Positions 1,147-49,867 of a stretch of DNA of 54,205 bases are shown one piece after another. How positions within the stretch are numbered: position 1 is the stretch's first letter; the number at the start of each line of letters is the position of its first letter. The position numbers and the translations under genes are program-made. The notes beneath the pieces are model-generated. The model did no database searches. It had not been told where the DNA came from and saw only the letters and a program-made list of their open reading frames with translations. Source of the stretch: Bacillota bacterium. GTDB lineage: Bacteria > Bacillota > Clostridia > Saccharofermentanales > DTU023. The DNA lies in NCBI GenBank assembly GCA_023388605.1, contig JAEWFX010000062.1, positions 1-54,205 of the forward strand, given 5' to 3'.

Positions 1147-1836
1147 ATGTTTAATAGTTTTAATATTGTTGAGATATTATCTTCCATTTTGGTATACACT
1201 TTTTCGCTGTCAGTACATGAGTATGCCCATGCCCGTATGGCGTATAGTCTAGGGGATAGAACTGCTTTCAGCCTCGGTCGCATGACGATAAATCCTGCTA
1301 AGCACATCGATCCTTTAGGTCTAGTAGCTTTTATCGTCGCTCATATAGGTTGGGCGAGACCAGTACCTTTTAATCCAAATAATTTCCGCAAAAATATCAG
1401 TAGACGTTGGGGTACATTGCTAGTTGCCATCGCTGGTCCAGTCAGCAATCTGATCATATCGTTTGTATCATACTTTATATTCAATTTGATCACAGTGCTG
1501 TTTTTGTCACCTTATAATATGACGCAAGCAACTGCTGGAACTGCCGTAATTTTCACTGTCTTAGATGTGTTGAACTTCTTCTTTGTGTGGAATATTTGGA
1601 TTGCGGTATTCAATATGATGCCCTTTCCTCCGCTCGATGGCTTCAAGGTATTCGGTGCTCTATTGCCTGCTAGATTTTACTACCTTATCAGTCAGTATGA
1701 ACAACAGATTTATATCATTCTTTTAGTATTTATTATCGCTGGCAGGGGGTTATTGAGCAGATTATTGTACATATTTGTTTTGCCGTTATCTAGATTGATA
1801 GCCTATCCCATCGATTTGTTGTTCTCCTTGTTCTAA
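1147..1836 (+). CDS. Site-2 protease family (peptidase M50) integral membrane zinc metalloprotease
   Basis: HEYAH (HExxH) lies in the first hydrophobic segment, and NMMPFPPLDG matches the NxxPxxxLDG motif. The protein is multipass hydrophobic. Its ATG directly abuts the upstream TAG. Confidence 0.85.
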   Translation: MFNSFNIVEILSSILVYTFSLSVHEYAHARMAYSLGDRTAFSLGRMTINPAKHIDPLGLVAFIVAHIGWARPVPFNPNNFRKNISRRWGTLLVAIAGPVSNLIISFVSYFIFNLITVLFLSPYNMTQATAGTAVIFTVLDVLNFFFVWNIWIAVFNMMPFPPLDGFKVFGALLPARFYYLISQYEQQIYIILLVFIIAGRGLLSRLLYIFVLPLSRLIAYPIDLLFSLF

Positions 1837-7985: not shown

Positions 7986-10490
7986 ATGGAAATTAAAGTT
8001 GCTAAATCAGCTGGATTTTGTTTCGGCGTCAAAGAAGCAGTAAAAACTGCAGAAGAAATGCTCAGAGCAGGCCAGAAAGTCGATATGCTCGGAGAGATAG
8101 TACACAATCAAGATGTTGTGTCTGAATTATGCGAAGCAGGATCTACTCTGTACAAGGAATTGTCAGATGTGCCGGAAAAAGCACAGGTGATTATCCGTGC
8201 CCACGGCGTACCTCCACAAACTATTGAACATTTACAGAAATGTCAGTGCCAGATAGTAGACAAAACCTGTCCTTATGTGAGTAAAATTCATAAATTAGCT
8301 GATCAGGCCGATAAAGAGGGGAAAGATGTGATCATTGTCGGCAATCCTAAGCATCCAGAAATTATAGGTATTGCAGGTTATGTCCGCCGACAAAATTGTT
8401 ACATAGTTAACAATTTAGAAGAAGCCAAAATTTTAGTTGAACAGCTAGAAAATGATGACAAGCTCGATCGTGAATATATTTTGCTGGCACAGACTACCTT
8501 TGAGCAAGATAAATTCACACAAATAAAAGAAATTATTAAAAATAAAGTTGTAACTTTGGTGGTTTTTGATACAATATGTTACACGACTAAGTATAGGCAA
8601 AATGAAGCTATTGAATTAGCAAAAAACTCTGATATTGTCTTCGTTATCGGAGGCGAACACAGCTCAAATACTGCTAAGTTAGCTGAAGTGGCGTCTAAAC
8701 ATTGTCGTGAAACATATTTAATTCAACGGCCGGCACAAGTTGCCGAGATCATCGGTAGCAGAGATTTGACAAATCTGCATATTGGGATCACAGCAGGAGC
8801 ATCTACACCGGAGCGTATGATCAGGGAGGTTATACAAGTAATGTCAGAACAAGATTTGCGTAATCAGCAAACAGAGGAACAAACAGCAGTTAATGAGGTC
8901 GCCGAGGAGAATCAAGTATCTAATGAGACTATAGCGACAGAGACTGTTGAGGTTTTAACTCCGGAAGATGTTGTCGGTACTGAAGAAAAAGAAGTGAAGG
9001 AAGAACCGGTCTCAGATGATATTGATTTCTCTGAGTTTATCGATAGTATTCCTCAACTAAAACGTGGTTCGACTGTCAAAGGTCGTATCGTTCGCTATGA
9101 TGACGATTTTGTCTATGTCGATGTCAAAGATAAGACTGAAGGACGTATCAATCGCCGCGAATTTGTCAGCGATTCAACTTTTGATCTCGATCAAGCAGTT
9201 GCCAATCAACAAACCATCGATGTCTATGTACGCAATATCCGCAACAACGAGCACGACAAGGAAATTCTTCTGAGCAAAGCTCGTGTGGATTTCAGCAAGC
9301 ATAAGGAAGCTATCGAGAAAGCATACAAAGAACAGACCCCTGTACAAGTTAAGGTCGTCAATACCGTCAAAGATGGTGTTATCGCCAGCTTCGGTAGCGT
9401 TGATCTCTACATTCACAGAACTCAACTGGAATTACAGATCGTCGAAGATTTGGAGCAATATGTCGGTCAAACTTTAGAGGTCATGATCACTCAGTTCGAC
9501 AATCAGGGCAAGAAGTTGCGTGTCTCCGGTTCACGCCGTGCACTCTTACAAAAAGCCCGTCATGAGCGTTCACGCCAAGTATGGGACAGCATTGAAATCG
9601 GCAAAGAGTATGAGGGTGTTGTCCGTAATCTAACTGATTTCGGTGCCTTCATCGATTTAGATGGTGTAGATGGTTTGGTTCATATCAGCGAACTGTCATG
9701 GGATCGCATCAAACATCCTTCAGAAGTTGTCAGTGTCGGCGATCATCTAAGTGTTTTTGTCAAAGATTTTGACCGTGAGAAGAAACGTATCTCGCTTGGT
9801 TTCAGACGTCCTGAGAACGATCCATACTACATGGTCGAAGAGAGATTCCCTGTCGGAAGCATTGTACGTGGTGTGGTTGTGAGAATGTTGCCTTTTGGTG
9901 CCTTCGTCGAGATCGCACCTGGTGTCGACGCTCTCTGTCATATCTCACAGATCTCTACCTATCGTTTAAATCGTCCCAGTGATGTCCTTAAAGAAGGTAT
10001 GGAAGTCGATGCGCGCGTCTTAGAAGTCAGCAATGCTGAACGCAAGGTTTCAATCAGCATTAAAGAGGTTGAGCCCATCAATCCTGAGCGCCCTGAACCT
10101 TCAGAGCAAACAGAGAAAAAGGTCAACAAAAAACCTCGCCGTCAACGTCAGAAGAATGAGCCCGATAAGTTGCCTACTACTTATGTGGATCAGGAATCAG
10201 GTTCAACCCTTTCATCACTCGCGAATTTCACTTTTAGCGATGAGGAGAGTGCAGAAGCTCTGGGTCTGATCAATCACGAAGAAAAACATGAGGAAGTAGT
10301 AGAAGAAGTTACAACTGATACTACTGAAGTCAACGTCAAAGCTCCTGTCAGCGATTTAGAGTTGCTCAAAGAAGAAACTGTTGAAGCTACACAAGCAGAA
10401 GCAGTTGTCGATGAAGCTGAAGTAGCTGAAGAAGCACCAGTCACTGGTGAAGATGGCGACGCAACTGTCGAACAAGGACACAGCCTATAA
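7986..10490 (+). CDS. ispH: Bifunctional 4-hydroxy-3-methylbut-2-enyl diphosphate reductase (IspH) / ribosomal protein S1 fusion
   Basis: The N-terminal ~285 aa carry the IspH Cys ligands (GFCFGV, CPYV, ICYTT). A Q/E-rich linker follows, then four S1 repeats (e.g. GVVRNLTDFGAFIDLDGVDGLVHISEL and GVVVRMLPFGAFVEIAPGVDALCHISQI) and an acidic tail. Confidence 0.9.
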   Translation: MEIKVAKSAGFCFGVKEAVKTAEEMLRAGQKVDMLGEIVHNQDVVSELCEAGSTLYKELSDVPEKAQVIIRAHGVPPQTIEHLQKCQCQIVDKTCPYVSKIHKLADQADKEGKDVIIVGNPKHPEIIGIAGYVRRQNCYIVNNLEEAKILVEQLENDDKLDREYILLAQTTFEQDKFTQIKEIIKNKVVTLVVFDTICYTTKYRQNEAIELAKNSDIVFVIGGEHSSNTAKLAEVASKHCRETYLIQRPAQVAEIIGSRDLTNLHIGITAGASTPERMIREVIQVMSEQDLRNQQTEEQTAVNEVAEENQVSNETIATETVEVLTPEDVVGTEEKEVKEEPVSDDIDFSEFIDSIPQLKRGSTVKGRIVRYDDDFVYVDVKDKTEGRINRREFVSDSTFDLDQAVANQQTIDVYVRNIRNNEHDKEILLSKARVDFSKHKEAIEKAYKEQTPVQVKVVNTVKDGVIASFGSVDLYIHRTQLELQIVEDLEQYVGQTLEVMITQFDNQGKKLRVSGSRRALLQKARHERSRQVWDSIEIGKEYEGVVRNLTDFGAFIDLDGVDGLVHISELSWDRIKHPSEVVSVGDHLSVFVKDFDREKKRISLGFRRPENDPYYMVEERFPVGSIVRGVVVRMLPFGAFVEIAPGVDALCHISQISTYRLNRPSDVLKEGMEVDARVLEVSNAERKVSISIKEVEPINPERPEPSEQTEKKVNKKPRRQRQKNEPDKLPTTYVDQESGSTLSSLANFTFSDEESAEALGLINHEEKHEEVVEEVTTDTTEVNVKAPVSDLELLKEETVEATQAEAVVDEAEVAEEAPVTGEDGDATVEQGHSL

Positions 10491-16203: not shown

Positions 16204-16221
16204 ATATTAGTATAGGTGAAT

Positions 16222-17277
16222 ATGGGAATTTTAATTGGAATTATTATCCTCAGTTTGATTATGATCATCCATGAAAGTGGTCATTTTATAGCTGGTCGCT
16301 TATTGGGCTTTAGAATCAAGTCATTCAATATATTTATGGGGCCTAAACTCTTTTCGCGACGCGGTAAAGATGGCATCGAATACACATGGCGTCTTTTGCC
16401 GATAGGTGCATCTGTTGCTTTTCACGGTGAAGCAGATGAAGAAGAAGAGCGAGCTAATGTTGATGGTGAAGTGATAGCTGAGGATGATCCGGGATTATTT
16501 TATCGTCGTCCTCGCTGGGCTCGTGCCATCGTCATCGCGATGGGGCCTATGGTCAACTTTATATCTGCCTTTATCGCAACCGCTATCATCGTTGTATGTT
16601 ACGGCGTCACTACTACTCAGGTCGCCGAATTAGTGCCTGGTAGCCGTGCAGAACAAGCGCAGATAGAAGTGGGCGATCAAGTCCTTTCATACAATGGTTA
16701 TAAACTTAATACCATACTCGATCTATCGACTGCTAAGATGATCAGTGATCCTAGCAGTGCAGACTTAAAAATTGAGAAAAGCAATGGTGATATCGTCGAC
16801 TTGCATTTCGATAATCTGAGTGGCGAAACTCCGCTGGGTATTTCTTTTGCTCAAGATAAATCTTTTGGCACAGTTATCCATGAAAGCTTTTACTATCCTC
16901 TGTCTATTGTGCGCTCGACTATACATGGTCTAGCCATGATGATCAGAGGAGAGATCGCAGCAAAGGATGGCCTAGCTGGTCCTATAGGGATTGTCAATTT
17001 AGTCGATCAGTCGGTGGAGGCAGGCGGTGGTTTTGCCATCGTCATGTATCGTTTATTGATGATTTTTGTGCTTTTATCTACAGCTATTGGCTTCACTAAT
17101 CTATTGCCCATACCACCGTTGGATGGACACCTTTTGTCAGTGATTCTGATTGAAGCGATTATCCGTCGCGACTTGCCGCCTAAATTTAAGCAAGCTGTGG
17201 TTTTGGCTGGCTTTGTACTGATGATAGCTCTGGCAGCTTATGTAATATATCTAGATGTGACAAGGTTAATTGCATGA
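16222..17277 (+). CDS. rseP: RIP zinc metalloprotease RseP/YluC type (M50 with PDZ domain)
   Basis: HESGH in TM1, a central PDZ-like segment (GSRAEQAQIEVGDQVLSYNG) and NLLPIPPLDG. The alternative start is GTG at 16216. Confidence 0.85.
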   Translation: MGILIGIIILSLIMIIHESGHFIAGRLLGFRIKSFNIFMGPKLFSRRGKDGIEYTWRLLPIGASVAFHGEADEEEERANVDGEVIAEDDPGLFYRRPRWARAIVIAMGPMVNFISAFIATAIIVVCYGVTTTQVAELVPGSRAEQAQIEVGDQVLSYNGYKLNTILDLSTAKMISDPSSADLKIEKSNGDIVDLHFDNLSGETPLGISFAQDKSFGTVIHESFYYPLSIVRSTIHGLAMMIRGEIAAKDGLAGPIGIVNLVDQSVEAGGGFAIVMYRLLMIFVLLSTAIGFTNLLPIPPLDGHLLSVILIEAIIRRDLPPKFKQAVVLAGFVLMIALAAYVIYLDVTRLIA

Positions 17278-18338
17278 TGCGCCGTAGATCAAAACAAGTA
17301 AAAGTTGGTTCAGTATTAATTGGTGGCGATGCACCCATAGTTGTCCAATCTATGAATAATACGCCCACTACTGATGTCGAGGCGACTTTACAACAGATAA
17401 ATGAACTAGCTGACGCCGGTTGTGAGATAACACGTTTAGCGGTTTTAGACGTACGGGCTGCTCAAGCCTTACATGAGATTTGTGCTAAGAGTCCTTTACC
17501 GATAGTCGCCGACATACATTTCCAGTATAAGTTGGCTCTATTAGCAGTTGAGGCTGGTGTCTCGGCCCTGCGTATCAATCCCGGCAATATCGGTTCTATT
17601 GAACGTGTGCAGGCAGTGGCGGAAGCCTGTGGTAATGCTGGTATACCCATTCGTGTCGGTGTAAATGCAGGTTCTCTAGAGGCAGAGATCAGAGATAAGT
17701 TCGGTGGTATCAATGAAGACGCTCTTTGTGCTTCAGCACTTAAGGCCGTCGATACTTTGCAGAGTACAGGCTTTCAAGACATCGTAGTCTCTGTCAAGGT
17801 ATCTGACCCGATGTTGACAATTAAAACTTATCGTAAACTCGCAGATATGACTGATCTACCTCTGCACTTAGGAGTTACTGAGGCCGGAACTCTCAAGCAG
17901 GGAACTGTGCGATCTGCGGTGGGTATCGGTACATTGCTCGCCGAGGGTATAGGTGATACTATACGTGTTTCTCTGACCGCTGATCCTGTGCATGAAATTC
18001 AGGTGGCCTATGATATCTTGAAATCGCTCAATCTACGCGACAAAGGTGCTCTCTTGATCAGTTGTCCTACTTGTGGTCGTACACAGGTGCAATTACAGCA
18101 ACTGGCAGAACAAGTAGAGGATTTGATCGCTGATGTCAAACAACCGATTAAAGTTGCAGTTATGGGTTGTCCTGTCAACGGTCCTGGTGAAGCTAAGGAA
18201 GCCGATATCGGTATCGCCGGTGGACGCGGTAATTACTTAATCTTCAAAAAGGGTGAAGTGATCAGCAGAGTCGATGAAGAGAATGCCTTACCTGCTTTGG
18301 CAAGTGAGATAGATAAAATCATTCAGGAGCATGAATAA
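17274..18338 (+). CDS. ispG: 4-hydroxy-3-methylbut-2-en-1-yl diphosphate synthase
   Basis: VQSMNNTPT, RINPGNIG and the C-terminal Fe-S ligands CPTCGRT and GCPVNGPGE. Confidence 0.95.
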   Translation: MMRRRSKQVKVGSVLIGGDAPIVVQSMNNTPTTDVEATLQQINELADAGCEITRLAVLDVRAAQALHEICAKSPLPIVADIHFQYKLALLAVEAGVSALRINPGNIGSIERVQAVAEACGNAGIPIRVGVNAGSLEAEIRDKFGGINEDALCASALKAVDTLQSTGFQDIVVSVKVSDPMLTIKTYRKLADMTDLPLHLGVTEAGTLKQGTVRSAVGIGTLLAEGIGDTIRVSLTADPVHEIQVAYDILKSLNLRDKGALLISCPTCGRTQVQLQQLAEQVEDLIADVKQPIKVAVMGCPVNGPGEAKEADIGIAGGRGNYLIFKKGEVISRVDEENALPALASEIDKIIQEHE

Positions 18339-21300
18339 TAGTCTCGTAGAATTTCTTAAATATTTATTAGCTGAGTCTGAATTAGCTGATGTAGATTTAC
18401 AGAGCTTATCTACTGTAAAAATATGCAAGATGCAATGTCTAGCAGAGGGTTGTTTAGTAGTGCACTTAGTGACTCCTCATATCCTCGATCTAGGTCTGCA
18501 GATAGGCATAGAGCAATTGTTGGAAAACCATCTGCAAATTTCTGAAGTCATCATCAAGCAATATCACGAGGATACAGAGATAGACTACGATACATTCATC
18601 GCTGGCATACCCCAGTGGTTATTGCGTCATGCCGATAAAAACCAAAGTCTCTTAGCTACAGTTTTACAGAATACACAGTATTCGATCACCGAAAATATGG
18701 AATTAATCTGTCAGCTGCCCACAGGAACTGAACAGATTATCGAGAACAAGAAAAGTTGGATACATAGTTTTTGGCGACAATATGCACCTCTAGATCTCGA
18801 GCTTAAATTGGTCAGTGATGAAGCTGAACTCGAAGAACGTTTGGAGCGTACTATCAACCTCCTCGCCGATACCAGAGAGACAGTTCTAGCTGAACATCAA
18901 TGTTGCCATCACCATCATCATACTGAGCCTATTCAGCCGATTAAAAACAAGTATAAACGCGTCAAAAACCGTAACAGTGATCAGGTTATTTGGGGCCGAA
19001 CTGGCAAAGAGTTACCTCTTATATCTATTAGTGATATCGATAATGAAACTGATCGAGCACTATTCAAAGGTCAGGTTTTCGATTTTGAGAGCCGTAATCT
19101 ACGTTCAGGCAACCAGATGATCAAGTTTGCAGTAACTGATATGACTGGCTCCATCGAATGTGTTCTCTTCGTTGATCCAGAGACTGGGCAAGAGTTAGAA
19201 GAAAAGATCAAAAATCAGTACCTACAGATAACTGCTGATATAAGTTTCGACCATCGTTTCACAAATGATTACCAAGCAAAAGTTACCTGTATTGAGCGAG
19301 CAGTAAAACCGCAGAAGCGACAGGATACTTATGCCGATAAGCGTGTAGAATTACATATTCACTCCAAAATGTCAGCTAAGGATGCCATATCTGATCCTGC
19401 GCGTATTATTACTAGAGCGCATGAATTTGGACATCATGCCATTGCCTTGACAGATCACGGCGTAGTACAAGGATTCCCTGAGGCTGCTAATGCTGTGGCG
19501 AAAATCAATAAAAATGGTGGCGAACTCAAATTAATCTACGGTGTTGAAGCCTATTTATTAGATGACGGTCTAGATTGCATCTCCTATCTTTGTGAGGAAG
19601 TCGATCTCAGCGAGGGACTAGTTTTATTAGATATACATACCTGTGGTTCTAGACCAGCTCGCGGTGCAGTTAGCAGTGTAGATCTCTACAAGCTTTCTGC
19701 GGAAAAATTGAAATTATTTCTGTCAGCTGATAATAGAAGCGACGATGGTATAGATGAACTCAAAGCTTCGATTACTCACGATAGTTATAGATTGCGTAGT
19801 CAAGCAGAAGCAGAAGCTATCTGTGAGAGATTACATAGCGGTGAGACGCAAGAAGACATCGCTAACAACCCAGAGGTCGTCGATGTTTTATACAGTATTC
19901 AGTCTGACATCGCATCTAAACCCGTTATTATTGCGGGTGGTCTCAGCAAGCTCAATTATTTGCGTTACGAGGGTTTTCGCATCGCTGACAATGCTCCTAC
20001 TATCAAATTCAATCCAGCTGTCATCGATTGGCAAGTTTTAGCTGACCATGCAAGCGTATCTGATGAACTAACCGACAAGTCTTCCATACTTACTTGTTTT
20101 GTCAAAAATTGTGCAGAGTGGGGCATTCAATTGAATACTCCTCTGGTGCAACTAAATAAATTAGTTGATTGGAAATCATTTAATCAGCTTAGAGATGAGA
20201 AGAAGCGTACTAATCACATCATTCTGTTAGCTGAGGATAATCTCGGTCTATACAATCTTTATCGTATGGTCTCTGATGCTCACCTCAAGTATTTCTATTA
20301 CAAACCACGCACACCGCGTTCTATCCTCAAATATTTTGGGGCTGGCATCATCGTGGGGGCTGCTTGTGTATACGGCGAAGTGTTCATGAGCATCCTCGAT
20401 GCCTACCAACGTGCTGGCAGCGATTATGCCAAAGCTTGTCAGCTATTAGACGATGAAAGATTAAAGCGTGTTGCACAATTTTATGATTATCTGGAAGTGC
20501 AGCCACTAGGTAATAATCGCTTTTTAACTCGTACAGAAGGTAGTGGTGTCGCCAATGACATTGACCTGCAAAATCTGAATCGTTTGGTAATAAAACTCGG
20601 TGAGTTGGTTGATCGACCAGTATGTGCGACCTCAGATTCTCACTTTTTAGAACCTGAGGACGATGTCTATCGCCGCATACTTTTGACTGATATGAATTTT
20701 GATGATGCGGATGATTCGCCTGATCTGTATTTCCGCACAACTGACGAGATGTACCGTGAGTTTGCTTACTTGCCATCTGAACAGTGCGATCAAGTTATTT
20801 TATCCAATCCACAGGCTATAGCGGCACGGGTACAGAAGAATATGAAACCTTTTCCCGATGGATCATTTCCTCCCATCATAAGCAGTGCAGCACGGGAAAT
20901 CGAAGATTTGACTATGGCTACAGCCCATCAAATATATGGGCGTGACGGTGTGCTGCCAGATATTGTAGAAGCGAGAGTCAAGCGAGAACTTTCTTCCATC
21001 ATCGACAATGGTTTTGCCATCATGTACTACATCGCGCACAAACTAGTCAAACAGAGCAATGACGATGGTTATGTAGTCGGCTCACGTGGTTCGGTGGGAT
21101 CATCGCTGGTAGCAACTCTCTGTGGCATCACCGAAGTCAACCCGCTGTTACCACATTACATATGTCCTCAATGTCACTACTTTGAAGCAGATGAATCTGG
21201 TACTTATGGTTCGGGTTTTGATCTGCCAGCAAAGAAATGTCCTCATTGCGGAGCGGACCTCAAGCGTGAGGGACAGGATATCCCCTTTGAAACCTTCCTA

Positions 21301-22758
21301 GGTTTTGACGGCGACAAACAACCAGATATAGATTTAAATTTTTCTGGCTTTTACCAAGCGACTGCACACAGATTTATCGAAGATATGTTCGGCAAATCTC
21401 ATACTTATCGTGCAGGCACTATCAGTGGTTATGCTGAGAAAAACTCCGTAGCCATGGTGCGTGATTATACAGAGCGTACTCAGCAGCATTGGGGTGGTAC
21501 AGAGATCAAACGTCTCGCTCACGGTCTTCAAGGTATCAAACGTACCACAGGTCAACATCCAGGCGGAATAGTCGTCGTGCCAAAAGAACGCGAGATCTAT
21601 GATTTCACACCAATACAACATCCAGCTGACAAAAGAGATAGTGGTATCATAACAACTCATTTTGACTTTAACGCCATGCACGACACCATCCTAAAGTTGG
21701 ATGTTCTCGGCCATGATAATCCTAGTATGTTGAAGATGTTAGGTGACCAGACGGGTGTGAACATAGCTGATATACCCATTCCAGATCCCAAAGTGATGGA
21801 ATTGTTCAAATCTACTGCAGCCATCGGCATCGATCCTGAGGAATCTACTATTGGTTCAGCTACTATCGGTTTGCCTGAGCTAGGAACTTTTATGGCGCGT
21901 GAGATGATTTCAGAGACAAAACCTCAGCGGTTTTATGACTTAGTACAGTTGTCGGGACTCTCTCATGGTACTGATGTCTGGTCAGGCAATGCGCAGGAGT
22001 TGATCCGCAATGGGACTTGTACCATCAATGAAGTTATCGGTTGTCGTGATAGTATCATGACTTACTTGATCTATCGTGGTCTGCCGAAAAAAGCAGCTTT
22101 TGACATCATGGAGAAGGTGCGTAAGGGCAAGGGTCTTTCCGCTGAACATGAGCAGATGATGCGTGATCATAATGTAGATGATTGGTATATCGAAAGCTGT
22201 AAGAAGATCAAGTATATGTTCCCCAAAGCTCATGCCGTGGCATACATAATGTCAGCCCTACAAATTGCCTGGTTCAAAGTTTATCATCCAGAAAGTTATT
22301 ACTGTGCCTTTTTTACCATCCGTGCAGTCAATGATTTTAGCAGCGATGAGATGTGTCTATCTCCCGATAAGATCCGTATCAAGCGTCAGGAACAACGCAA
22401 GGATTTTAAGAAAATGTCTAAGCCAGACCAGAAAAAATTCTTTGTGCTCGAGTTAGTGGAAGAGATGCAGCATCGAGGAATCAATTTCTTGCCGCTAGAT
22501 TTGTTTGAGTCAAGAGCAACTGAATTTTATTCACCTGAGCCAGGTTGGATACGTCCACCTCTATCTACTATTCCCGGTATCAGTGCCAGTATCGCTGAAG
22601 CCATCGTCCGAGCTAGAGAAGAGGGAGAGATACCTAATTGTGAGATCTTGCAGCGTCGGGCTGGTCTAGGAAAAGCTACCATAGATGCTCTGCAGGTATC
22701 AGGTGTATTGAAAGACTTGCCAGAAACAGCACAGATCGATCTCTTTTCGTTATTATAA
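18331..22758 (+). CDS. polC: DNA polymerase III alpha subunit, PolC type (exonuclease insert appears degenerate)
   Basis: 1475 aa. OB fold (IKFAVTDMTGSIECVLF), PHP ELHIHSKMS...ALTDHG, zinc finger CPQCHY...CPHCG, palm PDIDLNFSG, GQHPGGIVVVP and the C-terminal HhH region are all present. Confidence 0.95.
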   Translation: MNNSLVEFLKYLLAESELADVDLQSLSTVKICKMQCLAEGCLVVHLVTPHILDLGLQIGIEQLLENHLQISEVIIKQYHEDTEIDYDTFIAGIPQWLLRHADKNQSLLATVLQNTQYSITENMELICQLPTGTEQIIENKKSWIHSFWRQYAPLDLELKLVSDEAELEERLERTINLLADTRETVLAEHQCCHHHHHTEPIQPIKNKYKRVKNRNSDQVIWGRTGKELPLISISDIDNETDRALFKGQVFDFESRNLRSGNQMIKFAVTDMTGSIECVLFVDPETGQELEEKIKNQYLQITADISFDHRFTNDYQAKVTCIERAVKPQKRQDTYADKRVELHIHSKMSAKDAISDPARIITRAHEFGHHAIALTDHGVVQGFPEAANAVAKINKNGGELKLIYGVEAYLLDDGLDCISYLCEEVDLSEGLVLLDIHTCGSRPARGAVSSVDLYKLSAEKLKLFLSADNRSDDGIDELKASITHDSYRLRSQAEAEAICERLHSGETQEDIANNPEVVDVLYSIQSDIASKPVIIAGGLSKLNYLRYEGFRIADNAPTIKFNPAVIDWQVLADHASVSDELTDKSSILTCFVKNCAEWGIQLNTPLVQLNKLVDWKSFNQLRDEKKRTNHIILLAEDNLGLYNLYRMVSDAHLKYFYYKPRTPRSILKYFGAGIIVGAACVYGEVFMSILDAYQRAGSDYAKACQLLDDERLKRVAQFYDYLEVQPLGNNRFLTRTEGSGVANDIDLQNLNRLVIKLGELVDRPVCATSDSHFLEPEDDVYRRILLTDMNFDDADDSPDLYFRTTDEMYREFAYLPSEQCDQVILSNPQAIAARVQKNMKPFPDGSFPPIISSAAREIEDLTMATAHQIYGRDGVLPDIVEARVKRELSSIIDNGFAIMYYIAHKLVKQSNDDGYVVGSRGSVGSSLVATLCGITEVNPLLPHYICPQCHYFEADESGTYGSGFDLPAKKCPHCGADLKREGQDIPFETFLGFDGDKQPDIDLNFSGFYQATAHRFIEDMFGKSHTYRAGTISGYAEKNSVAMVRDYTERTQQHWGGTEIKRLAHGLQGIKRTTGQHPGGIVVVPKEREIYDFTPIQHPADKRDSGIITTHFDFNAMHDTILKLDVLGHDNPSMLKMLGDQTGVNIADIPIPDPKVMELFKSTAAIGIDPEESTIGSATIGLPELGTFMAREMISETKPQRFYDLVQLSGLSHGTDVWSGNAQELIRNGTCTINEVIGCRDSIMTYLIYRGLPKKAAFDIMEKVRKGKGLSAEHEQMMRDHNVDDWYIESCKKIKYMFPKAHAVAYIMSALQIAWFKVYHPESYYCAFFTIRAVNDFSSDEMCLSPDKIRIKRQEQRKDFKKMSKPDQKKFFVLELVEEMQHRGINFLPLDLFESRATEFYSPEPGWIRPPLSTIPGISASIAEAIVRAREEGEIPNCEILQRRAGLGKATIDALQVSGVLKDLPETAQIDLFSLL

Positions 22759-28003: not shown

Positions 28004-29036
28004 AAACTTTTATGACTTTGATCTGACAGATTGGCAACAGTGGTGCACAAGACAAGATTTGCCTAAATTTCGTGCTAAACAAATTTTCAAATGGCAGAAT
28101 GTAGGTGTTAAAAGTGCTGAAGAACTGACTGATCTCAGCAAGGAATTACGTAAGACTTTAGCTGCAGAATTTAACTTTGAACCAATTAAGACTTTGAGCG
28201 TTATCCGTTCTCAGCTTGATCCTGTGGCAAAATTTTTATTTTTGTTAGCTGATCGCCAGATCATTGAAGCTGTTCTGATGCACTATGATTATGGGACTAC
28301 TTTATGTCTGACAACTCAAGTAGGTTGTCGTATGGGATGTGACTTTTGTGCGTCTGCTCCTCTAGGCTTGATACGCAATCTCACTTCAGGTGAATTACTT
28401 GCCCAAGTCACGACCATTCAACGTTCTGAGAAAATTAGGATCAGCAATATTGTCTTGATGGGCATCGGTGAACCTCTCGATAATTATCAGAATACTGTTA
28501 AATTCTTACGTCAAGTAAATCATCCTGATGGACTGAATATTAGTCTGCGTAAGATTTCTCTGTCGACCTGCGGAGTAGTACCGATGATCTACCGCTTCGC
28601 TGAAGAGAAGATGCCTGTGACTTTATCGCTGTCTTTGCATGCATCTAATCAACAGATACGCGAACAATTGATGCCAGTTGCAAAACAATATGATATCGAC
28701 AAAGTACTGCGAGCCGTCGATGATTATTTTGAGGTTACGGGCAGGAGAGTTACCTATGAATACGCCTTGTTCCACGGTATTAACGACAGTGAAGAACAGG
28801 CACGACAATTATCTTCTCTGCTCAAAAATCATCGAGGTCATATCAATTTGATCCCAGCAAACCCCGTGCCGGGAAAAACTTTTTCACGCAGTCCACAACA
28901 AGTAGCAGATAGATTCAAGCAGATTTTAGAGCGTGACGGCTATGCCGTAACTATTCGTAAATCCATGGGTAAAGACATTGAAGCTGCTTGCGGACAATTA
29001 CGTCGACAAGCGATGGAGGAACAATGTTCAATTTAA
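27987..29036 (+). CDS. rlmN: 23S rRNA/tRNA (adenine-C2)-methyltransferase, radical SAM
   Basis: CRMGCDFC (CxxxCxxC) and GIGEPLDN. The ATG at 27987 (MSKLNKNFYDF) overlaps the rsmB end. I do not favour the ORF-track start at 27957. Confidence 0.9.
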   Translation: MSKLNKNFYDFDLTDWQQWCTRQDLPKFRAKQIFKWQNVGVKSAEELTDLSKELRKTLAAEFNFEPIKTLSVIRSQLDPVAKFLFLLADRQIIEAVLMHYDYGTTLCLTTQVGCRMGCDFCASAPLGLIRNLTSGELLAQVTTIQRSEKIRISNIVLMGIGEPLDNYQNTVKFLRQVNHPDGLNISLRKISLSTCGVVPMIYRFAEEKMPVTLSLSLHASNQQIREQLMPVAKQYDIDKVLRAVDDYFEVTGRRVTYEYALFHGINDSEEQARQLSSLLKNHRGHINLIPANPVPGKTFSRSPQQVADRFKQILERDGYAVTIRKSMGKDIEAACGQLRRQAMEEQCSI

Positions 29037-30946
29037 ATAATTGGCTAGATCCTAACTATATCGCCTATATTTTACGTTATTTTTTAGCACCCTTGTACGT
29101 AGCTGCAGCTATAATTTTGGCGCGGCGTACTTTTATAGTTTTACGAGAGCGCATCACTCGTCACCTAAAACCTGCTAATGGCTACTTTTTGTTGGCTCAA
29201 TCTGCCAATAATGATGGAGTTGTACAGACTTTCAAACTCTATCACACAACCTTGATAGGTAGTTCAAAATCTTCTGATATACGTATACGTGATAGTTTCA
29301 TAAAGTATCGTCATGCACTGATCTATCTCTATGATGGTCACTGGTACTTGCGACCAGCTAACAGCAAATCTCAGGTAGTGCGCAACAAACGCAAGGTCAC
29401 TGAACCAGTGTGTTTGAAAAATGAAGATGTGATCACCTTGGGTACTATGAGTTTGGTGTTTATCGATGAGCGGAGTGCAGCTAAGTCAGCTGGGTTCAAT
29501 TATGAGGGATCTTGGGTCGAAGCAGCACAAGGTACTAATTATGAGATGCCGTTACGTACACGTGATATCTGGAGTATATTTGTTAATTTCTATGTCTTAG
29601 CTAGTTTAGCTGTAGTCTTGCTCATACCAAAGAATTTCATCAGTTTATTGCCACTTGCAGCAGGTATACTTGGTGGCTTCGTTGTCATAGCTATGTTGAT
29701 ATACACCATGGCACCGCGTTTAGTGGGAAATTTTGATCGGACATTGTTCACCTGTTTTGCATTGTTGGCGGGTGTTGGACTAGTTATTCAGACTCGTTTT
29801 GCTTTTGTTGGACGTATACAGCCTGATGATTGGTCAGATTTAGAGATGTTGCAATATGTGAGACGTGATTTCATCGTACAAGGTGGAGTAGCACTGGTCG
29901 GCATGTTGCTGCTGCCATTGGTCGTACGTATTGTGACGCGTACACGTTGGCTTGAATATTTAGCGCCAGCTTGTCTGGTCATTACGCCAGCACTGTATAT
30001 CGTAACTTTTGTCCTGGGACGTGGTTCAGCTGAGTGGGGTGCAGGCCTGTGGATAAGATTGCCTGGAGGCCTGAGCATTCAGTTGACTGAATTCGCGAAG
30101 ATAAGTTATTTGATTGTGTTGGCACTGTTCTTCAAGAATAGGCCTACTTTCAAAATACAGATATTCTTTGCCTTTTGGGCAGCGGTCAACTTCGCTTTGA
30201 TTATGATACTGCCGGATCTGGGTTCGATGATGATACTATTGCCAGTGACCATAATCGTCTATTTCGCTATGACATCAGAATATCTGAAGACCATCTCTAT
30301 ACTAGCAGGTGGTTCAGCCATCTTCGTAGTTGCCTATCACACTATGGGTTACGTGCAGAGACGTATCTACGGTTGGACATCCCTGTGGACAGAGGTCAAT
30401 GCTAACAATGAGCAGATTATACGTGCTCTTCAAGCGATGGCGAGAGGAGGTTTAATTGGAAGGGGATTATCTCATGGTAATCCGCGTGCAATTCCACTCT
30501 ACTCTTCGGATATGGTCTTCGCTGCGATCACAGAAGAGATGGGGTTGATCCTGGCTCTGGGATTAGTATTGATTTTTGTGACTATTTGGTTGCGAGGAGC
30601 TACAGCTGTACCTGGTGTGCGCGATGGTTTCACCTCTTCATTAACCTTGGGTATGGCTAGCTATTTCTTCATGGAAGCGGCTGTCGTCATCGGCGGTGTC
30701 ACAGGATTAATTCCTCTAACTGGTGCTACTCTACCATTTATTGCTAAAGGAGGTAGCTCTATGTTGGCTAAATGGTTGATGGCAGGTCTTCTCCTGGGAT
30801 TGTATGGTAGACGTGAGCGTGGAGCTTACGAAACAGAGATTATCCAGCAAGCCAAACCAGCAGTCAATCAGTCCCGACAAAAATCGCGTTCAATTGGTAT
30901 GAAACCACAACGTCCTATACCACAGCAGAGAGGAGTTCGCAGATGA
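29024..30946 (+). CDS. FHA-like domain fused to a SEDS family (FtsW/RodA/SpoVE) glycosyltransferase
   Basis: N-terminal TM, then an FHA-like fold (TLIGSSKSSDIRIRDSFIKYRHALI...EDVITLGTMSLVFID), then ~10 TM segments with SEDS-like regions (SIQLTEFAKISYLI, DLGSMMILLP, PLTGATLPFIAKGGSS). The ATG at 29024 follows GGAGG. Confidence 0.8.
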   Translation: MFNLNNWLDPNYIAYILRYFLAPLYVAAAIILARRTFIVLRERITRHLKPANGYFLLAQSANNDGVVQTFKLYHTTLIGSSKSSDIRIRDSFIKYRHALIYLYDGHWYLRPANSKSQVVRNKRKVTEPVCLKNEDVITLGTMSLVFIDERSAAKSAGFNYEGSWVEAAQGTNYEMPLRTRDIWSIFVNFYVLASLAVVLLIPKNFISLLPLAAGILGGFVVIAMLIYTMAPRLVGNFDRTLFTCFALLAGVGLVIQTRFAFVGRIQPDDWSDLEMLQYVRRDFIVQGGVALVGMLLLPLVVRIVTRTRWLEYLAPACLVITPALYIVTFVLGRGSAEWGAGLWIRLPGGLSIQLTEFAKISYLIVLALFFKNRPTFKIQIFFAFWAAVNFALIMILPDLGSMMILLPVTIIVYFAMTSEYLKTISILAGGSAIFVVAYHTMGYVQRRIYGWTSLWTEVNANNEQIIRALQAMARGGLIGRGLSHGNPRAIPLYSSDMVFAAITEEMGLILALGLVLIFVTIWLRGATAVPGVRDGFTSSLTLGMASYFFMEAAVVIGGVTGLIPLTGATLPFIAKGGSSMLAKWLMAGLLLGLYGRRERGAYETEIIQQAKPAVNQSRQKSRSIGMKPQRPIPQQRGVRR

Positions 30947-32355
30947 AGCAATTATTGCGTAATCTCAAGATTATTTTAGTTTTATTCTTGGTCATCTCGT
31001 TGGGCTTGCTCGGCGGTGTCAGTTACCATCAATATAAAAGTCAAAAGATACTCTTGAATAGTTTTGGTGAAAGCAAACAAGCACTGGCTGAACGCTTCGC
31101 TTTTGCAGGAACTATCTATACGGCAGATAACATCAAGTTAGCTTACAGCAGCGATAAGCAGCGTCACTACAGCGAAGATCGCGAATTAGCTGAGGCCACT
31201 ATGCATTTGGTGGGTGATTATACTCAGAATATCTCTAACACCATCGAGACTGTGTATCAAGACAGCCTTACTGGTCACAGAAGACCTCTGCCATATCAAT
31301 TGCTCTTCGATTTGACAGGTAATGGATTGGTAGGCGATGACATAATCTTGACCATCGACAGTGAACTATCCAAACAGGCGTATCGCTTATTGGGTGATCA
31401 TCGTGGATCTGTAGTAGTGATCAATTACCAGACAGGAGCAATTGTCTGTATGGTCAGTTCTCCCAGCACTGTGCCAGAAAATGTCGTAGCTTATGAGGAT
31501 ATACCTGATACTGGCCTATTTAACCGAGCTCTTTTAGCTGAGTACAAACCTGGCTCTACTTTTAAGATCGTCACTGGTATGTCGTGGATTACCAGCGATC
31601 AATATGATCCTGATAAAACAGTTTATTGCAAAGGTACAGAACCTCTATTCGGTGAAGGAAGCGTGTTTGAAAATCGTGGTGAAAGCGGTCACGGTGATAT
31701 AGGTATAATTGATGCTTACGCTTATTCTTGCAACCACTTTTTCGGGCAAATCAGTGTCGATATAGGAGCAGAAGAATTACAATCTGGCGCTGAGAGTTTT
31801 GGCTTTAATCAGCAATATGAATTAGATAGGCTCTATGTAAATGAATCACAGTTTGCCATGCAGAGCGACGATGTATACAGCTTGAGTTGGCAATCTGTAG
31901 GTCAACCCAATGCCGAGACGACCTTAACTGTGACGCCTTTACATCTGAGCATGATGGCAGCTACCATAGCCAATCAAGGGCAAATGATGAAGCCACATGT
32001 GATAAAATACATGATAAATCCAATGCAACGTGGGTATCAGTATCTGAAGCCACGTGTACTGCGTGAGGTAACTTCACCAGAAGTGTGTCAAATCATTGAA
32101 GACGGTATGCGAGCAGCTGTTCAATACGGTACGGCAACAGGTGCACAGGGTTATGGCATAGAGGTAGCAGGTAAAACCGGAACCGCTGAATATCAACGTG
32201 AAGATGGTGAGATCGTAACCAATTCATTGTTCGCTGGTTTTAACGTCGATCGCGATCATCCCTATGCCGTCGCAGTCGTTTTAGAAGATGCAGCTGGTGG
32301 AGCAGCCGATATAGGTGGCAGTGTGCTAGCTTCAGCAAGTAAATTACAGGATTGA
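30943..32355 (+). CDS. Class B penicillin-binding protein (PbpA/PBP2-type transpeptidase)
   Basis: N-terminal TM anchor and the STFK, SCN (SxN) and KTGTA motifs. It overlaps the SEDS gene by ATGA. Confidence 0.85.
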   Translation: MKQLLRNLKIILVLFLVISLGLLGGVSYHQYKSQKILLNSFGESKQALAERFAFAGTIYTADNIKLAYSSDKQRHYSEDRELAEATMHLVGDYTQNISNTIETVYQDSLTGHRRPLPYQLLFDLTGNGLVGDDIILTIDSELSKQAYRLLGDHRGSVVVINYQTGAIVCMVSSPSTVPENVVAYEDIPDTGLFNRALLAEYKPGSTFKIVTGMSWITSDQYDPDKTVYCKGTEPLFGEGSVFENRGESGHGDIGIIDAYAYSCNHFFGQISVDIGAEELQSGAESFGFNQQYELDRLYVNESQFAMQSDDVYSLSWQSVGQPNAETTLTVTPLHLSMMAATIANQGQMMKPHVIKYMINPMQRGYQYLKPRVLREVTSPEVCQIIEDGMRAAVQYGTATGAQGYGIEVAGKTGTAEYQREDGEIVTNSLFAGFNVDRDHPYAVAVVLEDAAGGAADIGGSVLASASKLQD

Positions 32356-32532: not shown

Positions 32533-35079
32533 ATGAAATTGCTCTTAGTCGACGGCAATAGTCTATTAAATCGTGCTTATTACGCTACTAAAAACCAAAG
32601 ATTGACGGCTGTTGACGGTACGCCGACGGCGGCATTGCTCACTTTTATCAATATTATTGAACGTTTTTCTAAAGAGTTAAAGCCTGATATTTTCGCTGTT
32701 GCCTTTGATTTACCTGAACCGACATTCCGCCACCAGCGTTTTAAAGAATACAAAGCTCAGCGCAGTGGTATGGCTGAGGATCTAGCGGTGCAATTGCCCT
32801 GGGCCAAAAGAATTCTGGCGGCGATGAATATATCCATCCTCACCAGCAGCGGCTATGAAGCAGACGATGTGATCGGATCTTATGCTACTGCTGCTAAAGA
32901 TGCTGGCTATGAAGTAGCGATCTTGACTGGTGATCGAGATAGTTTTCAGCTCATTCAAGATCAGATTTCAGTGGTGTATCCGAGCACCAATAAGCAGGGT
33001 AGCACAGTAACTTATTTCGACAGCGCTAAATTTTACGAAAAATATGGTATCAATCCATCACAACTCATTGATCTTAAAGCTCTTATGGGTGATAGTTCCG
33101 ATAATATTCCTGGTGTTAAAGGAGTGGGTGAAAAAACTGCCACTAAACTTTTACAGGAATACGGTGATCTAGAGGGTATCTATGAGCACCTTTCAGAGAT
33201 CAAGGGCTCTACTCAACAGAAACTAGCTGATGATCGTGAGATGGCTTTTTTATCTCGTGAACTAGCTACCATTGTCACTGATATGCCATTGCCAATCTCT
33301 CTGCAAGATTTGGGGCGAAAAGAGATCGATAGAGCAGAACTCCTCGATATTTTTCAAAAACTAAAATTTATTAGTTTGATCGATCGCTTTGGTCTGCGTT
33401 CAGCAGAACAGTTATCGCTGGAACAGATGCCCGCAGTTAAGTTGCCAGCAGCAGTAGATAGTTGGCAAAGATTCTGTGAACTCAACCCCAAAGAAGTTGT
33501 GCTCATGTACGACGAAAAGCATGTGGTTTTTTATTGTAAGGCAGGCTATTGGTTGACCGATATCGTATCAGACACTCAGCTAGAGGTATTAGCCAAAACC
33601 AAATGCCAAGTTTTAACCTTCGGCTATAAAGATCTGTTAGTTCGTTATAATTTATCTCCATATATTCTGAAAACACAGGATTTGAGCATCTTAGCTTATC
33701 TGTTGAATAGTAGTGAGTGCAGGGATTTTGAACGCGCTTATTTTGCTGCACTCAACAAAGAGATTTCTATTGCTAAGGACGAATTATATCTAGTAAATTT
33801 AGCTAATTTAGCCAGTGAACTCTACGATGAACAGTATCGACAATTGTCTGAACGAGATCAGCTCAGTCTCTTGAATGATATAGAGTTGCCCTTGATTCCG
33901 ATCTTAGCTGAAATGGAGCAGATTGGAATCAAGATTGATCGTAAAAAAGCTGAAGAAGTAAATCAGGAATTGCTACAACGAGAAGAAACTCTCAGGCAAG
34001 AAATATACAGTTACGCCAAGTCAGATTTCAATCTGAACTCGCCCAAGCAATTAGCGGAATTTTTGTTCGATGATTTAGGTCTCAAGCCATTAAAAAAGAC
34101 CAGTGGCGGTCAGCGTTCCACAGCGGCGAATGTCTTAGAACAACTATATGATCAACATCCTGTGGTGAGTTTAATTCTAGATTATCGTGAACTCAGTAAA
34201 TTGCGTTCTACTTTTGTCGAAGGTTTATTGAACGTTGCAGACAATGATGATCGTATTCATACATCGTTCAATCAGACGCTGACTTCAACCGGGAGACTCT
34301 CAAGCTCTAATCCTAATTTGCAGAATATACCAATTCGCTCAGAAAATGCTCATTTAATCCGTTCAATGTTTGTGGCAGATTCGGGGCATTGTCTTTTGTC
34401 TTCAGATTATTCGCAGATCGAATTACGACTATTGGCTCATCTTTCTGGTGACGAAAATCTTAGACAAGCTTTTATTTCAGATGAAGATATACACGCCGAG
34501 ACCGCTGCAGGTATCTTTGGTATATCACAGGCTGAAGTGACAAGTCAGCAGAGATCAGTGGGCAAAACAGTGAATTTCAGTATCGTCTACGGTGTATCGG
34601 CTTTTGGTTTGTCACAAAATCTCAAAGTATTTCCTAAAGTCGCTCAATCCTACATCGATGGCTACAATCAGCATTTTCCTAAGGTCATGCCCTTTTTACA
34701 TGCTTTAGCTGAACAAGGTAAAGAGCGTGGTTATGTCGAGACGATGTTTAAACGCAGACGTTACATACCTGAATTGGCGAGTAGAAACTATCAACAACGT
34801 GAATTCGGCAAACGAGCCGCTATGAATATGCCCATCCAAGGCAGTGCTGCCGATCTGATTAAAATTGCCATGGTCAAAATTACTGAGCGTATACGTAAAG
34901 AAAAATTAAAGGCCAAACTGCTGTTGCAGGTGCACGACGAATTGATATTGACTGCACCTGAAGAAGAGTCGGAAAAAGTCTCAAAATTGCTTCAAGAAGT
35001 GATGCAACATGCTTATGAATTGACTATCCCGCTCAAGGCTGAAGTCAAAGTGGGAGAGACTTGGTCAGAACTTAAATGA
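32533..35079 (+). CDS. polA: DNA polymerase I
   Basis: 5' nuclease LLVDGNSLLNRAYY and GDSSDNIPGVKGVGEKTA; polymerase motifs DYSQIELRLLAH, KTVNFSIVYG and QVHDELIL. Confidence 0.95.
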   Translation: MKLLLVDGNSLLNRAYYATKNQRLTAVDGTPTAALLTFINIIERFSKELKPDIFAVAFDLPEPTFRHQRFKEYKAQRSGMAEDLAVQLPWAKRILAAMNISILTSSGYEADDVIGSYATAAKDAGYEVAILTGDRDSFQLIQDQISVVYPSTNKQGSTVTYFDSAKFYEKYGINPSQLIDLKALMGDSSDNIPGVKGVGEKTATKLLQEYGDLEGIYEHLSEIKGSTQQKLADDREMAFLSRELATIVTDMPLPISLQDLGRKEIDRAELLDIFQKLKFISLIDRFGLRSAEQLSLEQMPAVKLPAAVDSWQRFCELNPKEVVLMYDEKHVVFYCKAGYWLTDIVSDTQLEVLAKTKCQVLTFGYKDLLVRYNLSPYILKTQDLSILAYLLNSSECRDFERAYFAALNKEISIAKDELYLVNLANLASELYDEQYRQLSERDQLSLLNDIELPLIPILAEMEQIGIKIDRKKAEEVNQELLQREETLRQEIYSYAKSDFNLNSPKQLAEFLFDDLGLKPLKKTSGGQRSTAANVLEQLYDQHPVVSLILDYRELSKLRSTFVEGLLNVADNDDRIHTSFNQTLTSTGRLSSSNPNLQNIPIRSENAHLIRSMFVADSGHCLLSSDYSQIELRLLAHLSGDENLRQAFISDEDIHAETAAGIFGISQAEVTSQQRSVGKTVNFSIVYGVSAFGLSQNLKVFPKVAQSYIDGYNQHFPKVMPFLHALAEQGKERGYVETMFKRRRYIPELASRNYQQREFGKRAAMNMPIQGSAADLIKIAMVKITERIRKEKLKAKLLLQVHDELILTAPEEESEKVSKLLQEVMQHAYELTIPLKAEVKVGETWSELK

Positions 35080-48941: not shown

Positions 48942-49867
48942 TAAAGCTTTTAATTGAATCATTTAAATTTAGCAAATTACAATCAGAGCGTTTTTTTCGC
49001 TTGCTCTTTGTATTGTTGATAGCCTGGCAATTCGGTATAAATTATCTATTCGAAAATTATTTACCTGCAGATGTAATGTCATTTTCCACAGCTTTTGATA
49101 TCAAAAAAATCTATGCTTTAGGATTGATGATCTTATCTCTTATTATTAGCCTCTTTATTTCCATACTTTATTCTGGCGTTTTGATCAAAGAAATTCGTAT
49201 CAAAAATAAAGGTGTGGATGTATATAAAAATTTATCTACCAACGTCTTGATGATGCCATTGAGCGAACGCAGCAAAGAAGATCAAGAGTATCTACAAAAA
49301 TTATTTAAACTGATACAGATGACTCCAGAAGAACGCACAGAAGCTCGTATTCTCAGGAGTTTGCAAAATAAGCAAAGTGATGTAGAGGAGGATTGGTCAG
49401 CAACAAATAAAAGTGTGATTCTGAGTAAGAAATCGCAACGTAGTATCTTTTGCAGAACAGCTCTGCAATTGATCAAAAAATCATTGCTTATTATGTTGTT
49501 TTTCTTGACGATGTTCTTTGCTATGCTAGTTTCTGCACCGCTGTTATTTCTTATAGGTTTCGTATATATATTCACCTTCTGTTTTGTGCCTATCCTATTA
49601 GTTGCAGAAAATAAAAGTTTAAGAGAAGCATTTCGCTTGTCCAAACAATACACTGATGGCAATCGTCTAAAAATCTTTGTGATCACTATTTTTCAGACAT
49701 CGTTATTGTTGAACATCAATTACTTACTCGATATTTTATTTACCAATTTCTATGCAGTAGCTATTACTGCTGGTCTGCTAATGGCGATCGAGACTTTTGC
49801 TCGCGGAAGATTATTCGGACTTTTATACTTATTGTTAGCTGACAAAAAACCAATTATTCCAAATTAG
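48935..49867 (+). CDS. Hypothetical multipass membrane protein (possibly DUF975/YciC-like membrane domain)
   Basis: 310 aa. Two N-terminal TM helices, a ~90-aa charged loop, then 3-4 further TM helices. No catalytic motif is recognisable. It overlaps the recN stop by 7 nt. Confidence 0.5.
   Translation: MLIKLLIESFKFSKLQSERFFRLLFVLLIAWQFGINYLFENYLPADVMSFSTAFDIKKIYALGLMILSLIISLFISILYSGVLIKEIRIKNKGVDVYKNLSTNVLMMPLSERSKEDQEYLQKLFKLIQMTPEERTEARILRSLQNKQSDVEEDWSATNKSVILSKKSQRSIFCRTALQLIKKSLLIMLFFLTMFFAMLVSAPLLFLIGFVYIFTFCFVPILLVAENKSLREAFRLSKQYTDGNRLKIFVITIFQTSLLLNINYLLDILFTNFYAVAITAGLLMAIETFARGRLFGLLYLLLADKKPIIPN

Follow-up and report, generated by a model that had tools for sequence, protein, structure and literature searches.

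Firmicutes depend on PolC as their essential replicase, and the enzyme is a target of antibiotics. A built-in exonuclease of the DnaQ type is regarded as its hallmark and, in Bacilli, as the proofreader of the replisome. Here, we analyzed the polC gene carried by a 54,205-nucleotide (nt) stretch of DNA of an uncultured Clostridia bacterium (the whole of contig JAEWFX010000062.1, assembly GCA_023388605.1; hereafter called the window). The product of this gene retains the DnaQ-type insert with most of its catalytic motif residues replaced.

Several described systems are relevant to this locus. In Mycobacterium tuberculosis DnaE1, proofreading is performed by the trinuclear-zinc site of the PHP domain, which is the replicative proofreader there; in PolC, the DnaQ domain sits in a loop along the groove by which the primer enters the PHP site, and the PHP domain of Geobacillus PolC was reported to be inactive owing to a single D-to-N change (PMC5636811). 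In a 2026 census covering over 3000 complete genomes, HHDHEH[C/H]DH served as the signature of "active" PHP proofreaders, Clostridia were found usually to carry three active proofreaders, and decay in Pol III alpha subunits was ascribed to the PHP site and not to the DnaQ site; the order considered in this work was represented there by only two cultured species, Fastidiosipila sanguinis and Mageeibacillus indolicus (PMC12926913). Furthermore, the Exo insertion is missing from 6% of PolCs, which all come from Clostridia and Negativicutes that pair PolC with DnaE1, and it was speculated that DnaE1 is the main replicase in the PolC+DnaE1 Clostridia (Timinskas et al. 2014, PMC3919608). Our literature search yielded no report of a PolC that keeps its DnaQ domain in an inactivated form; exo-less clostridial PolCs are known, and the retention of a dead domain would be a variation on this theme.

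The polC open reading frame (ORF) runs without interruption over 4425 nt and encodes a protein of 1475 amino acids (aa). This protein scored 1350.8 bits with the NCBIfam equivalog NF001688 (cutoff 873) and 1229.7 bits with TIGR01405 (cutoff 1043.45), and its best PDB matches were Geobacillus PolC (3f2b, E 4e-293) and a full-length PolC (9qpc, E 4e-271). Pfam detected the PHP, OB, Pol3 alpha, finger and HhH domains, and the order N-terminal domain (NTD)-OB-PHP (split by the insert)-Pol3-HhH is that of PolC. The palm motifs (PDIDLNF at aa 998 and KLDVLGHD at aa 1122), the Cys4 zinc finger (CPQC/CPHC, aa 945-974) and the C-terminal clamp motif (QIDLF, aa 1468) are all in place. A previous sequence-only reading of this DNA, made without database searches, had described an intact PolC ORF and not a pseudogene, and the uninterrupted frame, the equivalog scores above the cutoffs and the polymerase motifs confirm this. 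A Cys/His-rich run, EHQCCHHHHHTEP, was also noticed at aa ~188-200 (~18892..18930), in the linker that joins the N-terminal domain to the OB fold.

The gene is located in the order rpsB-tsf-pyrH-frr-uppS-cdsA-dxr-rseP-ispG-polC-priA, which is the ancestral Firmicutes context, and the ispG-polC-priA synteny is identical at the intact and degenerate loci of its relatives. This context and the shared synteny indicate that it is the primary polC and not a paralogue; no second PolC locus was found in any assembly scanned, the weight of this result being small, since the scan patterns were query-specific. We thus consider the gene an ortholog of polC and the primary replicative one in its host, an uncultured member of Clostridia with affinity to Saccharofermentanales. 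The ATG of polC and the end of ispG share 8 nt (18331..18338), and the rseP/ispG overlap amounts to 4 nt, which together suggest translational coupling along dxr-rseP-ispG-polC.

The insert is localized between GVEAYLLDD (aa 404-412) and NHIILLAEDNLGLYNLY (from aa 628), and the span from E406 to H629 comprises 224 aa, compared with 213-229 aa in canonical PolCs, so that the normal size and the normal place claimed for it earlier were both correct. As ~214 aa are present in the loop, the protein is not an "Exo-less PolC". The Exo I position reads LVLLDIHTCGS, in which D434 is kept, the Glu is replaced by H436 and TTG is changed to TCG. The Exo II block, VIIAGGLSKLNYLR, aligns with VAHNASFDIGFIR (MAFFT L-INS-i, 60 best homologues), its register being anchored by the conserved F/Y-L-R just after the block; here the His is replaced by A535, the Asn by G536, the Phe by S539 and the catalytic Asp by K540. 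The placements of Exo I and Exo II were concordant between L-INS-i and two HHalign runs, and they agree with the sequence-only reading, which had pointed to the retained Asp434 and to His436 at the Glu position of Exo I, as well as to the loss of His-Asn and Asp from Exo II.

The placement of Exo III is unstable. In the multiple alignment and HHalign, S577 takes the position of the His and D582 that of the Asp, after a deletion of ~21 aa directly upstream, and the register shifts between alignments (S577/D582 or H573/D578). The claim that no H-x4-D occurs anywhere in the insert proved to be literally false, as the string H573-A-S-V-S-D578 exists and is put on Exo III by pairwise phmmer against 9qpc. 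Nevertheless, H573-x4-D578 was rejected as a surviving Exo III motif: it lies four residues out of register, it is not conserved (neither the His nor the Asp is found at these positions in P0002, a relative with 76% identity), and the chance of meeting an H-x4-D in this insert is P~0.32, given that its 208 aa include 4 His and 19 Asp. The DEDDh ligand set (four acidic residues and the general-base His) is thereby incomplete, its state being D434/H436/K540/(S577)/D582, and the competent integral DEDDh exonuclease expected of a PolC was not found. With H436 for the Glu, K540 for the Asp and the general-base His gone, a two-metal DEDDh site would be unable to form.

The insert has also become hard to recognize. 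No match to RNase_T (PF00929) was obtained with Pfam for the whole PolC (E<=1) or for the insert alone (E<=0.01), and a hidden Markov model (HMM) of 23 distant canonical PolC exonuclease inserts (from outside the near clade) did not detect the query insert; the same HMM found nine of the 28 degenerate inserts (E<1e-3). As Pfam, NCBIfam and the hand-built HMM all miss the query insert, its homology was shown by profile-profile comparison. The profile of its subclade (P0001-P0014), aligned by HHalign with the distant canonical exonuclease after trimming of the flanks, gave a probability of 98.8% (E 4.5e-17, 157 columns), and 99.9% (E 2e-36) was reached with the PHP-derived flanks and all 28 canonical sequences. 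AlphaFold2 models were obtained for aa 330-800 (predicted local distance difference test score, pLDDT, 90.5; predicted template modelling score, pTM, 0.89) and for aa 400-640 (pLDDT 92.1). In both models, strands and helices follow one another as in DnaQ (RNase H-like fold, beta1-beta2-beta3-alphaA-beta4-alphaB-beta5-alphaC), and two additional helices come after beta2. A Foldseek search of PDB with the predicted structure returned DEDDh nucleases only (PolC 9qrn/9qpc, TREX1/2, the S. thermophilus DnaQ domain, RNase T and the DinG exonuclease). Profiles and models together identify the insert as a true, albeit decayed, homologue of the exonuclease.

The state of the PHP domain, the second and older nuclease site of the protein, is different. 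All nine of its ligands are present, i.e., H342, H344, D351, H376, E406, H629, C679, D769 and H771, and the query shares this set, HHDHEHCDH, with every degenerate and every insert-deleted relative. It corresponds, without deviation, to the signature of the "active" PHP (PMC12926913). The D769 position is occupied by Asn in Geobacillus 3f2b and in 9qpc ("ATGNVHYL" versus "ATSDSHFL" here). Judging by these residues, the pattern is reciprocal: the PolC of the Bacilli type combines a dead PHP with a live DnaQ site, and the query PolC a complete PHP with a dead DnaQ site, which makes PHP proofreading in the latter plausible. Consequently, the sequence-only reading was right about a dead DEDDh insert in an intact gene, but its further step, to a replicase with no intrinsic proofreading, is not supported by the sequence, because the complete HHDHEHCDH site had been overlooked.

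The decay of the insert was followed in its relatives. Fourteen motif columns (D434, E436, T437, T438, G439, E449, H535, N536, F539, D540, H577, R578, A579 and D582) are 100% conserved in 22 canonical sequences and at most 36% conserved in 28 degenerate ones (57% for G439). The replacement residues in the columns of the dead site vary between lineages; for example, D-H-K in the query corresponds to D-K-S in P0002. At equal core divergence (cores 60-65% identical), conservation of the degenerate inserts is roughly half that of the canonical ones (20.5% versus 42.7%). Identity to P0002 amounts to 55% in the NTD, 71% in the OB domain, 88% in the N-terminal part of PHP, 50.5% in the insert, 78% in the C-terminal part of PHP and 91% in the polymerase core. 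Relaxation over the insert, raised as a question in the sequence-only reading, was found at the nucleotide level as well. Compared with P0002, the proportion of nonsynonymous differences (pN) is 0.366 in the insert and 0.070 in the core (~5x), and the nonsynonymous divergence (dN) is 0.50 and 0.074 (~7x), respectively, with 0.087 in the N-terminal part of PHP; these values are given per region as pN and dN and not as omega or dN/dS, since the synonymous sites are saturated (proportion of synonymous differences, pS, 0.74-0.85, and 0.83 in the insert; closest relative, L059).

Still, the insert contains no stops and no frameshifts, its pN (0.37) is far below its pS (0.83), and its GC content of 0.414 may be compared with 0.429 for the gene. 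It is relaxed yet not neutral, and resembles a scaffold more than an enzyme. Its best-conserved part is a lineage-specific segment (aa 541-566), which is 93-100% conserved in the 28 degenerate and five near-canonical sequences (82% for P562 and 79% for D566) and differs in 17 distant canonical PolCs. In the degenerate relatives L033, L034, L039, L046, L051, L026, L027 and P0017, the inserts are expanded to 290-315 aa, compared with ~215-229 aa in canonical PolCs, from which it follows that the constraint on length was also relaxed after catalysis had been lost; the first five of them come from rumen metagenome-assembled genomes (MAGs) of Saccharofermentans/Clostridiales.

The exact query protein was found on this contig only, and the best full-length match among the PolCs of GTDB species representatives (L001) shows 60% identity. 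Of the best 120 database clusters, 31 carry an insert of full size that lacks DEDDh (29 of the near clade, plus P0094 and P0098), and seven (P0038, P0055, P0058, P0067, P0100, P0112 and P0114; about 1223-1251 aa) have the insert deleted, with a linker of 16-27 aa left. P0094 and P0098 (1412-1414 aa) represent a Bacillota PolC lineage outside the near clade, with a full-size insert and the degenerate site A-K-E-Q. Among the GTDB species representatives, 13 of the 52 evaluated are degenerate. Altogether, the decayed state was recorded in ~40 independent clusters/species (NCBI, ENA, JGI and Logan assemblies), mostly MAGs of Saccharofermentanales, so that, with regard to the question of whether the substitutions are shared by relatives, it is the decay that is common to these lineages, the replacement residues being different. 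The relatives recovered were MAGs assigned to Saccharofermentans, Mageeibacillus, Fastidiosipilaceae, Saccharofermentanales and "Oscillospiraceae", and DEDDh was intact in those of Mageeibacillus and Fastidiosipilaceae.

In a bootstrapped neighbour-joining (NJ) tree based on PHP and the polymerase core of 99 taxa, intact sequences alternate with at least six degenerate groups within a clade of 100% support. Degenerate P0026/P0032/P0021 are sister to intact P0016/P0020/L011 (100%), degenerate L017 is nested in an intact group (85-100%), and two degenerate groups from rumen and digesters lie inside a 100% clade that also has intact members. The 25-taxon group of the query obtained 81% support, and degenerate P0033/P0034 form a separate group (100%). 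Such interleaving indicates repeated, independent inactivation, provided that a decayed site was never regained. A wider statement, that in Saccharofermentanales and at least one other Bacillota lineage the DnaQ proofreader of PolC died at least six times independently, with the domain kept as a scaffold and the PHP metal site untouched, is put forward tentatively, and we would give it somewhat less than even credence.

Taking these results together, the explanation that we find fairly probable is that this is the primary polC, in which the DnaQ-type exonuclease in the PHP loop has decayed into a folded, catalytically dead shell, as has happened repeatedly in the order, and in which the PHP domain would most likely do the proofreading by its complete trinuclear-metal set, as in the DnaE1 of Mycobacterium and Thermus. 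Being part of the PHP loop beside the PHP active site, the dead domain would probably be retained for a structural or primer-guiding role. Backup may be provided by the PHP domain of DnaE1, normally also encoded in Clostridia. The repeated loss of DnaQ-domain catalysis in the order would mean that this domain is redundant there.

A number of observations weigh against this explanation. HHalign with the profile of the query and its two closest relatives (P0001-P0003) gave a probability of only 25% against the canonical exonuclease; the homology of the insert thus rests on the wider clade profile, and the query insert alone is undetectable with the distant canonical HMM. The AlphaFold2 alignment includes canonical PolCs, by which the model is biased toward the DnaQ fold, and the Foldseek matches, although of probability 1.0, have modest TM-scores (0.35-0.52). 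An intact set of PHP ligands is necessary, and not sufficient, for proofreading, and the literature search revealed no PolC whose PHP domain was experimentally shown to proofread. The analysis of this genome covered the present contig only, and a DnaE1, a stand-alone DnaQ-like protein or a second polC may be encoded elsewhere. Finally, the count of independent losses rests on a one-protein NJ tree, in which some deep nodes have 50-80% support.

Among the other explanations, the one that deserves most attention, though we regard it as rather unlikely, assumes a demotion of PolC: DnaE1, with its own active PHP, would be the main high-fidelity replicase, the DnaQ domain of PolC would be free to decay, and the PHP motif would be conserved for structural or other reasons. 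This possibility was raised by Timinskas et al., whose exo-less PolCs are all clostridial, and some Clostridia have DnaE1 only (PMC3919608); the repeated, independent decay or deletion of the exonuclease domain in PolCs of the Clostridia type would also fit. Yet purifying selection on the core is very strong (dN 0.074 and 91% identity to P0002), the clamp motif, the zinc finger and the palm residues are intact, and the ancestral ispG-polC-priA position is kept. It should be added that a demoted PolC and the explanation preferred here, i.e., a primary PolC with a dead DnaQ shell and a proofreading PHP, are not mutually exclusive, and that the former is compatible with the data. Less probable still is a replicase without intrinsic proofreading, in which fidelity would depend on a separately encoded, trans-acting DnaQ-like exonuclease, or which would belong to a natural mutator lineage. 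The destroyed DEDDh site and the PolA of the same contig, also without a functional 3'-5' exonuclease, speak for it, as does the slightly longer root-to-tip distance of the PolC core in degenerate lineages (0.338 versus 0.291 in intact ones). When sister branches are compared, though, the degenerate and intact lengths are 0.148 versus 0.146, 0.123 versus 0.110 and 0.196 versus 0.157, i.e., near-equal in two of the three pairs; the excess of ~0-25% in degenerate lineages is small and inconsistent and gives no sign of a strong mutator, branch length being a weak proxy. In addition, no DEDD exonuclease genes were found in the 54-kb window, and the strict conservation of the nine PHP residues in every degenerate or deleted lineage would be unexpected if they had no catalytic role.

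Two further explanations concern the insert itself. It is very improbable that its active site was rewired, so that it would still be an exonuclease or another metal-dependent enzyme with D434, H436, H573, D578 and D582 as candidate ligands. Two of the four carboxylate positions (D434 and D582) are kept in some alignments, a His is able to ligate metals, and the H-x4-D string is the one that pairwise phmmer puts on Exo III, but the candidate ligands are conserved neither in P0002 (D-K-S-K-L) nor across the clade, Lys stands at the Asp of Exo II, the profile alignments do not keep the string in register, its occurrence by chance has P~0.32, and the whole domain evolves ~7x faster than the polymerase core. 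An artefact of assembly or annotation, or a pseudogene, could be suspected in view of a metagenome-type contig and of an exact protein seen on this single contig; given an uninterrupted 4425-nt ORF of normal GC content, an insert whose pN is far below pS, and the same architecture in ~40 independent clusters/species, this is scarcely credible.

With regard to the described diversity, the query and ~40 MAG lineages show a decay opposite to that stated in the 2026 census (PMC12926913), i.e., a dead DnaQ site in a retained domain. This sharpens two questions, namely PHP proofreading by clostridial PolC and the division of labour in PolC+DnaE1 replisomes. If PHP is the operative proofreader of clostridial PolC, the exo-dead and exo-intact sisters constitute a natural test series for PolC PHP proofreading, and the same sister pairs could also reveal a non-catalytic role of the DnaQ fold at the PHP site, e.g., in guidance of the primer end. 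The practical effect is modest: annotation pipelines report an ordinary PolC, and what is assumed about fidelity in these bacteria, which are common in gut, rumen and digesters, may not hold.

The coordinates of the features discussed are summarized in Table 1.

Table 1. Position of polC, of the parts of its product and of polA in the window
Feature	Coordinates	Strand	Basis or remarks
polC, PolC-type DNA polymerase III alpha	18331..22758	+	ORF, NCBIfam, PDB matches, synteny
PHP domain, N-terminal part (aa 336-413)	19336..19569	+	Pfam PF02811; ligands H342, H344, D351, H376, E406
Degenerate DnaQ-like (DEDDh-type) exonuclease insert (aa 414-627, 214 aa)	19570..20211	+	HHalign, AlphaFold2, Foldseek; no Pfam match
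Exo I remnant LVLLDIHTCGS (aa 430-440)	19618..19650	+	MAFFT L-INS-i, HHalign, phmmer versus 9qpc
Exo II remnant VIIAGGLSKLNYLR (aa 532-545)	19924..19965	+	L-INS-i, HHalign
Lineage-specific conserved segment L541..L544-R545..G548-F549..K559-F560-N561-P562..D566	19951..20028	+	Best-conserved part of the dead domain
Exo III region HASVSDELTD (aa 573-582)	20047..20076	+	phmmer, multiple alignments, HHalign; placement unstable
PHP domain, C-terminal part (aa 628-830)	20212..20820	+	Ligands H629, C679, D769, H771
Polymerase core (Cys4 zinc finger, palm, fingers, HhH, clamp motif)	20821..22755	+	Pfam PF07733, PF17657, PF14579
polA, Taq-like Pol I (848 aa); 3'-5' exonuclease region (aa ~268-470) vestigial	32533..35079	+	PF02739, PF01367, PF00476

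The second DNA polymerase gene of the window, polA, had been suspected of lacking an Exo I motif, and this suspicion was well founded: Pfam revealed the 5'-3' exonuclease and pol A domains but no PF01612 in PolA, no DxE/NxxYD/YxxxD (DEDDy) set occurs in aa 268-470, and the best PDB match is Taq pol I. A disrupted DEDDy site, or a vestigial 3'-5' exonuclease, is common in PolA (PMC12926913). Since the PolC insert and this region of PolA both appear dead, both proofreading domains of the DnaQ type in the window are vestigial.

Several other genes of the window were also noted, while an Rfam scan of the whole window gave no match. An 834-aa ORF (7986..10490, +) encodes IspH/LytB (aa 3-286) fused to four S1 RNA-binding domains, and is thus IspH-ribosomal-protein-S1-like, and a 652-aa protein (28988..30946, +) has an N-terminal FHA domain fused to a domain of the FtsW/RodA/SpoVE family, its gene being followed by that of a penicillin-binding transpeptidase (30943..32355). 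A 310-aa ORF (48935..49867, +), located between recN-like (47316..48941) and prfB-like (49875..50975) genes, had no Pfam match at E<=0.001. Two genes of the M50 family (site-2 proteases) are present, one (1147..1836, +; 229 aa) beside scpA/scpB, and the other, RseP-like (16216..17277, +; 353 aa), upstream of ispG.

The PolC described here may finally be compared with the systems closest to it. With canonical PolCs (B. subtilis, Geobacillus kaustophilus 3f2b, 9qpc) it shares the family, the order of domains, and the loop and size of the insert; these proteins have D-E-D-D-H in the insert and, in the Bacilli type, HHDHEHCNH in PHP, whereas in the query DEDDh is destroyed and PHP is complete. Similarly to the exo-less PolCs of Clostridia and Negativicutes (PMC3919608), it has lost DnaQ proofreading, keeps the PHP site intact and would be of the PolC+DnaE1 type; in those enzymes, however, the insert was physically deleted, while the query, placed in a different clade of the tree, carries an insert of ~214 aa that is predicted to fold and is under purifying selection. 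The PHP proofreaders of M. tuberculosis and Thermus DnaE1 (PMC5636811) contain the same nine-residue trinuclear-metal ligand set inside the replicase polypeptide, but these are DnaE1 enzymes with demonstrated activity, whereas in the query PolC the activity is inferred and the loop adjacent to PHP holds a whole dead DnaQ domain. The vestigial exonuclease of Taq/Bst Pol I is likewise a DnaQ-like fold kept as a spacer after the loss of its carboxylates, although in a polymerase of a different family, which acts in repair and Okazaki processing rather than as a replicase.

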